A DNA stretch of 64,000 bases. Source: Methanobrevibacter sp. Its GTDB lineage: Archaea; Methanobacteriota; Methanobacteria; Methanobacteriales; Methanobacteriaceae. The stretch covers positions 19,575 through 83,574 of the forward strand of contig NZ_JAUNXI010000004.1 of assembly GCF_030539875.1 (NCBI RefSeq). Reading direction: 5' to 3'. The notes under the pieces were generated by a model. That model was not told the DNA's origin, searched no databases, and saw only the letters and a program-made list of their open reading frames with translations. Positions 22,693 to 26,006 of the stretch are shown here, one piece after another; position 1 is the stretch's first letter, and each line of letters starts with the position of its first letter. A program made the position numbers and the translations under genes.

Positions 22693-22727
22693 GCTTCCAT
22701 GATTTTCATTTTCAGTCCTGATTTTTC

Positions 22728-22784
22728 GCACTTTGGTTTCAGTTTTATGCATCTTGGATGTGCTGCCAATTAGCCATTTATATA
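22728..22784 (+). promoter_or_regulatory. LytTR-type direct repeat (9-12-9) upstream of a TATA box
   Basis: GCACTTTGG 22728-22736 and GCATCTTGG 22749-22757, 12 bp apart; TTTATATA at 22777-22784. Confidence 0.6.
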
Positions 22785-22815
22785 TGGTTTTACTAATCAT
22801 ATAATTGAAGGTGAT

Positions 22816-23070
22816 ATGATGGATTTAAGACAAAAGGCAGAAAAAAGAGTTGATAGAAAAATCAAATTCAAAGAAAATCTATATAAGTATTTGATGGTAA
22901 ATACAATAATAGCAATTATCTGTTTTCTAATCCTGCAAAGCTTTTGGTTATTGGCATTTGTAATGCTTTTCTGGGGAATTGAACTTGCAGATGATTATTT
23001 TAAAGCTTATCCTCTTAATGATTATCGGGAAAGAATGATTGATAGGGAACTTTCTAAAATGGGTGATTGA
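22816..23070 (+). CDS. 2TM domain protein
   Basis: RQKAEKRVDRKIKF...two TMs...FWGIEL...RMIDREL. Confidence 0.8.
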   Translation: MMDLRQKAEKRVDRKIKFKENLYKYLMVNTIIAIICFLILQSFWLLAFVMLFWGIELADDYFKAYPLNDYRERMIDRELSKMGD

Positions 23071-23346
23071 ATGGACGACAGTTTAAGGGTTACAGCAGAA
23101 AAAAGAGCCGATGCCAAAATCAAATTTTATAAGGATTTTATTATTTATATAATTGTCAACCTATTGTTGGCGGCTGTCAACTTCACTTTCACTCCTGAAT
23201 TCTGGTGGGTGTTATTTCCAGCATTTTTCTGGGGTATTGCAGTGTTTGATGGCTTTTTAAAAGCATTTGTATTTAGTGCTAAATTTGACACAGCAGAATA
23301 TAGGGAACAAAAGATTCAAGAAGAAATGGAAAAGTTAAGGAAATAA
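23071..23346 (+). CDS. 2TM domain protein
   Basis: AEKRADAKIKFY...YIIVN...WWVLFPAFFWGI...KIQEEMEK. Confidence 0.85.
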   Translation: MDDSLRVTAEKRADAKIKFYKDFIIYIIVNLLLAAVNFTFTPEFWWVLFPAFFWGIAVFDGFLKAFVFSAKFDTAEYREQKIQEEMEKLRK

Positions 23347-23349
23347 ATC

Positions 23350-23790
23350 ATGAAGGTAAATTTATTTGTTTCAAGAGATATTGAAGAGCCCCATGCAGAT
23401 ATTCACACCGATGAATTAACTGATAACATCACAAAGGCAATGTCAATTTTAGAAAGTGATGAATCAAGTGAAATGCTGGCGGTAAGAAAGGGTCTTGATA
23501 TTGCCCTTTTAGAGTTTAATGAAGTTTACATGCTTAAAGTTGAAAATAAACAGGTTAATGTCTATACTGAAAGTGGCGAATACTTTATTAAAAAACCATT
23601 ATATCAGGTTGAAGAGACACTAACGGGCGATTTTGTCCGCATATCTAAAACTACAATTATTAATTTAAAAAAGATAGGGAGAGTTGCTCCTTCACTTAAA
23701 GGAATGATGTTTATAGAACTTAAAAATGGCTTAAAGGATAATATCTCAAGAAAATACCTGCCCGGATTTAAACAGGCTTTAGATTTATAG
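23350..23790 (+). CDS. stand-alone LytTR DNA-binding protein
   Basis: FVRISKTTIINLKKI LytTR signature; no receiver domain. Confidence 0.92.
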   Translation: MKVNLFVSRDIEEPHADIHTDELTDNITKAMSILESDESSEMLAVRKGLDIALLEFNEVYMLKVENKQVNVYTESGEYFIKKPLYQVEETLTGDFVRISKTTIINLKKIGRVAPSLKGMMFIELKNGLKDNISRKYLPGFKQALDL

Positions 23791-23802
23791 GTGGTTTTTA
23801 TG

Positions 23803-24222
23803 AAAATAAAATTAATTGAAATGCTAACATTAGGTGCTTTTATAGGCTGTTTTATTGTAATGTGTGTCATGGTTATAATTTCTTTAACAAACGGACCTCA
23901 TAACATTCAATTCAGTGGTGTTGATATAATAAATTCGTTTCTTGGATCAATAGTTGCAGGTTGGGGATTTTCCTTAAGCGGGCTGATTTACCATAAAGAA
24001 GATTTGCCTTTTCCGCTTCAGGTTATTTTTCAAATGACAATCGGAATGACAGTATTGTTCCTGATTGCAATTTATCTTCATTGGATGCCTATCAACCTCG
24101 GAATCGGTCCGGTAATAACCTGGATTGCAATAGCCTGCATATCTGCAATTATTTTCTGGATGGGATTTTATATTTATTATTATCTGGTTGCACGTGATTT
24201 GAATAAAAAGTTAAATAGATAA
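23803..24222 (+). CDS. DUF3021-like membrane protein (LRS inhibitor type)
   Basis: 4 TM, IAIYLHWMP and YYYLVARDLNKKL C-terminus; directly after the LytTR gene. Confidence 0.82.
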   Translation, partial: KIKLIEMLTLGAFIGCFIVMCVMVIISLTNGPHNIQFSGVDIINSFLGSIVAGWGFSLSGLIYHKEDLPFPLQVIFQMTIGMTVLFLIAIYLHWMPINLGIGPVITWIAIACISAIIFWMGFYIYYYLVARDLNKKLNR

Positions 24223-25913: not shown

Positions 25914-26006
25914 TTACTGTTATTTTTAACAGTAAGTAATTTACTTTTTTTGGGATAATTTCCCATATGGATGTGGCCTTCGTGGCTGAACAAAAAGGTG
26001 TTATTA
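25914..26006 (+). promoter_or_regulatory. structured 5' leader of rpl15e (candidate eL15 r-leader)
   Basis: TTTATAAA box at 25886; hairpins TTACTGTTA/TAACAGTAA, TGGGA/TCCCA and GCC/GGC before the RBS. Confidence 0.5.

Follow-up and report, generated by a model that had tools for sequence, protein, structure and literature searches.

LytTR regulators are common in bacteria, whereas in archaea they are rare (PMC8253408) and unstudied. The membrane inhibitors of LytTR regulatory systems contain a DUF3021 or a DUF2154 domain (PMC6193735). The characterised systems of Streptococcus mutans operate by positive feedback, in which the membrane protein holds the regulator inactive and the released regulator binds direct repeats and activates the operon (PMC6193735). 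These repeats follow a rule of 12 bp between the half-sites, with a strong bias to a position 10 bp before the -35 hexamer (PMC6193735), and those of Listeria lmo0984 read GCATCTTAG-12-GCATGTTAC (PMC6193735, Table 3). ABC transporters have been linked to several LytTR regulatory systems (PMC6193735), and systems with operon repeats have also been reported for “some archaea”, with the promoter read as a -35/-10 promoter (PMC6193735). The accessible parts of the main text and supplements of that study contain no mention of Methanobrevibacter, and a literature search retrieved no paper linking LytTR to methanogen promoters. Archaeal activators such as Ptr2, TFB-RF1 and EarA bind upstream of the BRE/TATA elements and recruit TBP or TFB, activator-dependent archaeal promoters typically contain a weak BRE or TATA box, and TTTATATA has been quoted as the methanogen TATA consensus (PMC5512572).

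The window, by which we mean the whole 64-kb stretch of Methanobrevibacter DNA that was analysed, contains a putative operator and promoter in a 123-nt gap between a membrane-protein gene and an operon of four genes (2TM, 2TM, LytTR, DUF3021) that are tightly packed on the + strand (Table 1). The source names of near-identical proteins assign the DNA to this archaeal genus, and a ribosomal protein L15e-type ORF is present at 25971. The LytTR domain scores 75 bits against a Pfam gathering cut-off of 22.6, which places the protein in PF04397, and a whole-genome search identified this gene as the sole LytTR gene in the 1.82-Mb genome. The 146-aa protein has one Pfam domain, is matched by the NCBIfam models LytR and BtsR through their C-terminal DNA-binding part only, and shows a weak match to the solved LytTR domain 3d6w. 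No phospho-receiver domain was detected in it with Pfam or NCBIfam, and no kinase gene is located within the operon. The start codon of the DUF3021 gene directly abuts the LytTR stop at 23790, and the DUF3021 protein is presumed to be the inhibitor partner of the regulator. The first start codon of the operon is at 22816, or at 22819 if judged against the orthologues, which begin with MDLR or MNLR; the ATG at 22819 is the likely true start of 2TM gene 1. The upstream 234-aa protein has no Pfam or NCBIfam match at E <= 0.01; its gene, which ends about 35 nt before the site, flanks the operon on the left in 19 of the 20 loci examined within the genus (L002 differs).

Table 1. Positions of the operator, promoter and gene features within the window.
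Feature	Position	Strand	Remark
Upstream polytopic membrane protein, 234 aa	21988-22692		
T-rich tract TTTTTC, extended half-site	22722..22727	+	5' of DR1; pairwise identity 0.95 (20 orthologues)
Direct repeat 1 (DR1), putative LytTR half-site, GCACTTTGG	22728..22736	+	Genus consensus GCATTTCAG
12-bp spacer between DR1 and DR2	22737..22748	+	First 6 nt variable, last 6 T-rich
Direct repeat 2 (DR2), putative LytTR half-site, GCATCTTGG	22749..22757	+	
19-bp linker from DR2 to TATA box, length fixed	22758..22776	+	
TATA box TTTATATA, methanogen consensus	22777..22784	+	Pairwise identity 0.90
TATA box to predicted transcription start	22785..22809	+	Predicted AT-rich proximal element and initiator
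Shine-Dalgarno-like GGTGAT	22810..22815	+	Conserved ahead of the orthologous start codons
2TM-domain membrane protein gene 1	22816..23070	+	PF13239, E 2.7e-13
2TM-domain membrane protein gene 2	23071..23346	+	PF13239, E 7.4e-20
Receiver-less LytTR DNA-binding protein, 146 aa	23350..23790	+	PF04397, E 5.6e-21, residues 51-144
DUF3021 membrane protein	23791..24222	+	PF11457, E 7.2e-21
Ribosomal protein L15e-type ORF	25971		

Among the traits that Zou et al. 2018 listed for LytTR systems, the locus has the small receiver-less LytTR protein, the DUF3021 gene immediately downstream and the 9-bp repeats with a spacer of 11-13 bp, and it lacks the placement of the repeats about 10 bp (range 4-11) before a sigma-70 -35 hexamer. 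Judged from its sequence, the locus thus agrees with every sequence-testable criterion for such a system, the sole exception being the criterion that takes a sigma-70 promoter for granted.

The order of elements across 22722-22784 is TTTTTC-GCACTTTGG-TTTCAGTTTTAT-GCATCTTGG-ATGTGCTGCCAATTAGCCA-TTTATATA. The sequence-only reading of this DNA had described two repeats 21 bp apart, start to start, the second of which ends 19 bp before a TATA box, and both distances are exact. The last approximately 7 nt of the linker occupy the BRE position and read TTAGCCA in the window and ATAGCCA in most orthologues. Downstream of the TATA box lies a conserved ACTAA...TATAATTGAA block, and a conserved C/TGAA is found about 23-24 nt after the box. 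The stretch up to this motif is conserved and of fixed length among the orthologues, with a single 1-nt deletion, which is in the window, while indels are frequent just downstream. Based on the TATA geometry and on where these indels begin, the transcription start is predicted at about G22807 in TTGAA. The TTTTTC tract before DR1 is possibly also the oligo-T terminator of the upstream gene. A partial extra copy of the half-site, (G/A)CATCGCC, is located 2 bp after repeat 2 (GCATCTTGG-AG-GCATCGCCA) at 22758-22769 in the window and in many same-genus promoters, and its score on the half-site matrix is low, at about 2 bits. A candidate third half-site overlapping the TATA box (GCCATTTAT) was rejected, with a matrix score of -3.1 bits and an offset of +24 rather than +21.

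Within a single sequence the repeat is not significant. Matches of 7/9 or better at an offset of 21 occur at 0.79% of the genome positions, which corresponds to about 0.74 expected per intergenic region of this length and would by itself suit a chance repeat in AT-rich intergenic DNA. The motif GCAYYTTGG has exactly two occurrences in the 64-kb window, both at this site, in what is a post hoc test. The significance of the repeat comes instead from comparison across species. We compared the locus to orthologous operons (2TM, 2TM, LytTR, DUF3021) from the same genus, Methanobrevibacter, and found TTTTTGCAYYTYRG twice in 20 out of 20; all 20 promoters also keep the period of 21 bp and the 19 bp that separate the repeat from the TATA box. 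Absence of the repeat upstream of orthologous operons had been named beforehand as the observation that would speak against it, and on this test the proposal stands. No indel was observed in any of the 20 loci from the T-tract before DR1 through the TATA box, whereas immediately 5' of this stretch they are common. Pairwise identity among the 20 orthologues is 0.79 for the DR1 core and 0.82 for the DR2 core, as compared to 0.36 for the first six columns of the spacer, 0.68 for its last six, and 0.66 at third codon positions of the upstream gene. The most conserved part is the GCA..T..T core and not the T-runs alone; because these runs misled a generic repeat finder based on self-similarity, a core-anchored search was used instead. 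This pattern of identities indicates that the repeat is under purifying selection before every orthologous LytTR operon examined.

A position weight matrix was derived from 19 other species, without the window, and on this matrix the window site ranks first in the 1.82-Mb genome (34.1 bits, versus 17.7 for the next). The family genomes were searched with a pattern for the full geometry, GCAYYTYR-N13-GCAYYTYR-N20-TTWATA, with the reversed pattern as a control. In total, 103 of the 314 family genomes were matched, including 81 of the 103 same-genus genomes, usually at one to three sites each, while the control matched none of the 314. With these counts, the top leave-one-out matrix score and the cross-species conservation, the chance explanation is refuted, and we give it next to no weight. 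Orthologous promoters missed by the strict pattern have the TATA variant TTTAAATA at the same 19 bp. Further genera (g12, g22, g23 and g26) keep the arrangement repeat-12-repeat-19-TATA despite a different linker sequence, for example TTAATTTGGATAAGTATTCA in place of AAACATCGCCAAATAGCCA.

PF04397 was identified in 85 of the 103 genomes of the genus, and within the phylum it is confined to this family, where it occurs in 10 of the 30 genera. No site was found in the complete genomes that lack a LytTR gene (G014, G043, G011, G080, G118, G062, G110), and genome G002, which has a second LytTR type only, has no GCAT-type site. This second type (L021, G002:C12, ~1406-1500) is encoded in a LytTR-DUF3021 operon with 47% identity and no 2TM genes, and its repeat, ACCTCTTAA-12-ACCTCTTAG, is of the S. 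mutans HdrR type and located 19 bp before TTTATAAT. Two LytTR types thus have their own repeats within a common geometry, and the repeat sequence therefore follows the protein subtype.

Several loci deviate from the common arrangement. The loci L033, L034/L035 and L049, which are related to L021, have ACA/ACC-type repeats. In L045 (G311:C9, ~889-940), three half-sites in 21-bp phase, ACATTTTAG-12-GCATCTTGC-12-GCATCTTGT, precede the TATA box, and L037 contains additional upstream half-site pairs. Downstream of the promoter, L031, L032, L037, L038 and L040 (genera g12 and g22) have a long, conserved 5' leader (TATTATCTAAAAACAAATGGAATTTCATTA...), and some g12 and g22 loci have about 100 nt or another gene between the 2TM gene and the LytTR gene. 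In L019 (G013:C3:54257-57691), the LytTR gene has two in-frame stops and no upstream 2TM ORF of at least 60 aa was found; this species nevertheless retains the repeats and an intact exporter promoter site. L019 looks like a decaying system. Extra LytTR matches in frames of about 240-270 aa, the size of response regulators, were found on short contigs in G070, G089, G004, G112, G130 and G306, and may represent bacterial contamination or true two-component regulators.

It had also been proposed that a genome scan for the motif before TATA boxes would define a regulon. The scan yielded a small regulon in relatives and, in the window genome, the autoregulatory site only. Across the genus, the repeat pattern is about ten times commoner than the control even when the TATA constraint is removed, and the matches fall into four recurring classes: the operon's own promoter, an exporter site, a methyltransferase site and two coding coincidences. 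The recurrent matches GCATTTCATGAAGGTATAGCTGCACTTCA and GCACTTCATCAATGTATTTTTGCACTTCG were rejected as operators, as both are inside conserved coding genes, GCACTTCATCAATGTATTTTTGCACTTCG in that for the proteasome alpha subunit. The exporter site was found in many Methanobrevibacter species (loci L053-L058, e.g., G017:C1:486323 and G044:C1:374524) and consists of GCATTTCA-ACACCTNNTTTTY-GCATCTTR, 19 bp, TTTATATA and 20-21 nt up to the ATG of an operon for a MacB_PCD/FtsX permease and an ABC ATPase. A distance of 20-21 nt from TATA box to ATG is the geometry expected of a leaderless mRNA, and these putatively leaderless exporter promoters give independent support to TTTATATA as a functional TATA box. 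The methyltransferase site, identified with the TATA-constrained pattern (loci L060-L067, e.g., G087:C23:10173 and G041:C4:92386), precedes a gene for a SAM-dependent Methyltransf_11 protein of about 200 aa, and its linker resembles that of the operon promoter. An MFS-like ORF of 504 aa follows the methyltransferase gene in one locus. The window genome contains no close homologue of the MacB-type permease and none of the methyltransferase. A second site in this genome, on contig C8 (17.6-17.7 bits), was treated as a chance match; no TATA box follows it, and the exporter that bears that site in relatives is without a close homologue here.

We also compared the archaeal loci to their closest non-archaeal homologues, which have 40-43% identity and are encoded in two-gene LytTR-DUF3021 operons on contigs that either carry bacterial markers (ribosomal protein L9, SpoIID) or are labelled Clostridium sp. 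Their upstream regions have the form GCATTTCAY-12-(G/A)CCNCTTRY, with 10 bp between the second repeat and the -35 box and 17 bp between the -35 and -10 boxes, in exact agreement with the published rule (PMC6193735): GCATTTCAT-12-GCCTCTTAT-10-ATGACA-17-TATTCT in L026, GCATCTTAA-12-ATCTCTTAC-10-AACACA-17-TATAAT in L023, GCATTTCAC-12-GCCACTTGC-10-(-35)-17-TACGAT in L052 and GCATTACAC-12-ACCACTTAC-10-CTGACG-17-TAATAT in L050. A TTTT or AAAA tract before GCA is present in the bacterial relatives as well. The half-site and the dimer spacing are thus common to both domains, and the sole difference lies in how far the operator is from the core promoter. The 3' edge of the operator is at about -46 relative to the start in the bacteria and at about -50 relative to the predicted start in the window; the operator is barely shifted relative to the start, so that BRE/TATA occupies roughly the place of the -35 region.

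The T5-T6 runs before both GCA cores could terminate the upstream gene, and the T-runs beside the repeats may be conserved partly in that role. It could accordingly be proposed that the conserved blocks serve an oligo-T terminator, another factor or a generic upstream element, and that the likeness to LytTR sites is coincidental. We consider this very improbable, given that conservation peaks in the core beyond the T-runs, that the sites are confined to genomes with a LytTR gene, that the repeat sequence varies with the LytTR subtype, that the bacterial homologues share the half-site, and that the ABC-exporter site has no T-run before DR1. The proposal of a LytTR-type 9-12-9 repeat in front of an archaeal TATA box is supported by the conservation among orthologues and by the match to published repeats and to those of the bacterial homologues. 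The repeat is almost certainly a binding site of a bacterial-type LytTR regulator.

A quick maximum-likelihood tree placed the archaeal LytTR sequences in one clade (SH-aLRT 87), nested in a wider radiation that is presumably bacterial. In view of this single clade, it is less likely that the GCAT-type and ACC-type systems of archaea were acquired independently, and one transfer with later divergence is favoured. The system probably entered the Methanobacteriaceae from bacteria on a single occasion and was then inherited vertically, with divergence into two subtypes. We infer the direction of transfer from the rarity of LytTR in archaea (PMC8253408), most representatives in the tree having no taxonomy.

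The TATA box of the window promoter corresponds to the consensus, while its BRE is off the genome consensus, as estimated from 52 crude promoter calls. Before TTTATATA, the genome-wide consensus in these calls is c-g-A-A-A-n-n, whereas the operator promoters have A-G-C-C-A or A-T-G-C-A at the BRE position; at positions -5 to -3, the genome's promoters have A-A-A, as compared to A-G-C here and A-T-G in other genera. The operator ends 12-13 bp before the BRE position, and repeat 2 and the BRE are about 20 bp apart, centre to centre. The sequence-only reading held that recruitment of TBP/TFB from such a site would be an unusual mechanism. This is not so: such recruitment is the standard model for archaeal activators (PMC5512572), and what is new is its proposed use by a LytTR fold.

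We consider it likely that the 146-aa LytTR protein encoded in the operon uses the repeats as its operator; it would activate this archaeal promoter in a positive autoregulatory loop. The LytTR protein, the DUF3021 protein and the two 2TM proteins would constitute a LytTR regulatory system of the HdrRM/BrsRM kind that has kept its DNA specificity from bacteria (GCAYYTYRG twice, with a 21-bp period), with the operator moved to 19 bp before the TATA box. Counted from the predicted start, the repeats would lie at about -79 to -50, whereas in bacteria they precede a -35 hexamer by 10 bp. If the system works as in S. mutans, its membrane partner would keep the regulator inactive until a signal at the envelope releases it to bind both half-sites on one face of the DNA. 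The bound regulator would then help TFB and/or TBP to assemble at the perfect TATA box and non-consensus BRE. Help to TFB binding is favoured because the TATA box is consensus and the BRE is not, as for EarA (proposed) and TFB-RF1 (shown), and a contribution of DNA bending to activation is possible. In many relatives, the same operator and geometry would drive the MacB-type ABC exporter operon and the SAM methyltransferase gene.

The same TATA box can be read differently. As a perfect methanogen consensus it may bind TBP without help, in which case the promoter might be constitutive and the repeats could mediate something other than activation. The site also lies close behind the stop codon of the upstream gene. 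A bound LytTR protein might act in negative autoregulation or as a roadblock to upstream read-through. We regard such roles as unlikely. The site is outside the TBP/TFB footprint, since it ends 19 bp short of the TATA box and 12-13 bp short of the BRE position, whereas archaeal repressors usually overlap the BRE/TATA elements or the start site (PMC5512572). The characterised S. mutans systems show positive feedback (PMC6193735), and the identical geometry is found again before unlinked targets that have other upstream neighbours.

Part of the common 19-bp geometry could be inherited rather than independently selected, because the archaeal LytTR proteins form one clade; against inheritance alone stands the finding that the geometry is common to three non-homologous promoter classes. 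The fixed 19 bp over these three classes and over unrelated linkers speaks for a LytTR dimer that is placed stereospecifically with respect to the pre-initiation complex. A more far-reaching reading is that a transferred LytTR protein activates the archaeal complex from a fixed distance of 19 bp, through a new TFB contact or through DNA bending, within a defence circuit formed by the exporter and the methyltransferase. We put this forward tentatively, as a possibility short of an even chance. If true, the LytTR module would be an activator portable across domains, and the circuit may serve gut and rumen methanogens in sensing, and in defence against, envelope-active compounds of neighbouring bacteria.

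The promoter architecture shared across the family is best read as a bacterial activator module that was re-fitted to a TBP/TFB-dependent promoter after transfer, with the DNA specificity and the dimer spacing retained and the distance to the core promoter altered and then frozen. It offers a simple experimental system for what an activator needs across the bacterial/archaeal divide, and a compact inducible promoter for use in methanogen genetics could be derived from it. The small regulon (MacB-type exporter, methyltransferase) is that of host-associated methanogens, with relevance to methane mitigation. Recruitment of TBP/TFB by archaeal activators and LytTR systems in “some archaea” (PMC6193735) were already known. 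New are the LytTR fold at an archaeal promoter, the geometry frozen throughout the family, the defined regulon and the 2TM genes ahead of the regulator.

Compared to known archaeal activators, the window site resembles those of Ptr2 (Methanocaldococcus jannaschii, TBP), TFB-RF1 (Pyrococcus furiosus, TFB, weak BRE) and EarA (Methanococcus maripaludis, fla) in its position upstream of the BRE. The EarA-dependent fla promoter also combines a consensus TATA box with a non-consensus BRE (PMC5512572). These activators have Lrp/HTH-type folds, in contrast to the LytTR beta-fold here; the window site is farther from the BRE, with a gap of 12-13 bp at a strictly fixed distance, and recruitment is putative in this case. 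AgrA, ComE, PlnC/D and BlpR have the same DNA-binding fold and the same imperfect 9-12-9 repeats, two helical turns apart, upstream of activated promoters, but regulators of the AgrA/ComE type have a phospho-receiver and a cognate kinase, whereas the window protein has neither.

The closest similarity is to the LytTR systems of the Firmicutes. HdrRM and BrsRM of S. mutans likewise have a receiver-less regulator and 9-12-9 repeats before their own operon (PMC6193735), and the DUF3021-type systems of Listeria (lmo0984/lmo0985) and Staphylococcus aureus (SACOL_RS12395/12400) share the order of a LytTR gene followed by a DUF3021 gene (PMC6193735). The Listeria half-sites are almost identical to those in the window, and ABC transporters are targets or neighbours in the Firmicutes systems and here alike. 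Unlike the Firmicutes systems, the window system is in an archaeal host with no sigma-70 polymerase, its operator precedes a TATA box by 19 bp, where theirs precede a -35 hexamer by about 10 bp, and one or two 2TM-domain genes head the operon. Among archaea, the pair TALC_RS05580/05575 of Thermoplasmatales archaeon BRNA1, the only archaeal entry in the published list (PMC6193735, Table 3), also combines a LytTR protein and a membrane protein with proposed repeats. That promoter was read as TTGTCC-16-TATATG with poorly matching repeats (TCCGTCGGT and TACGAGGGA) and without comparative support, whereas the window promoter is read as BRE/TATA and its geometry is backed by more than 100 genomes.
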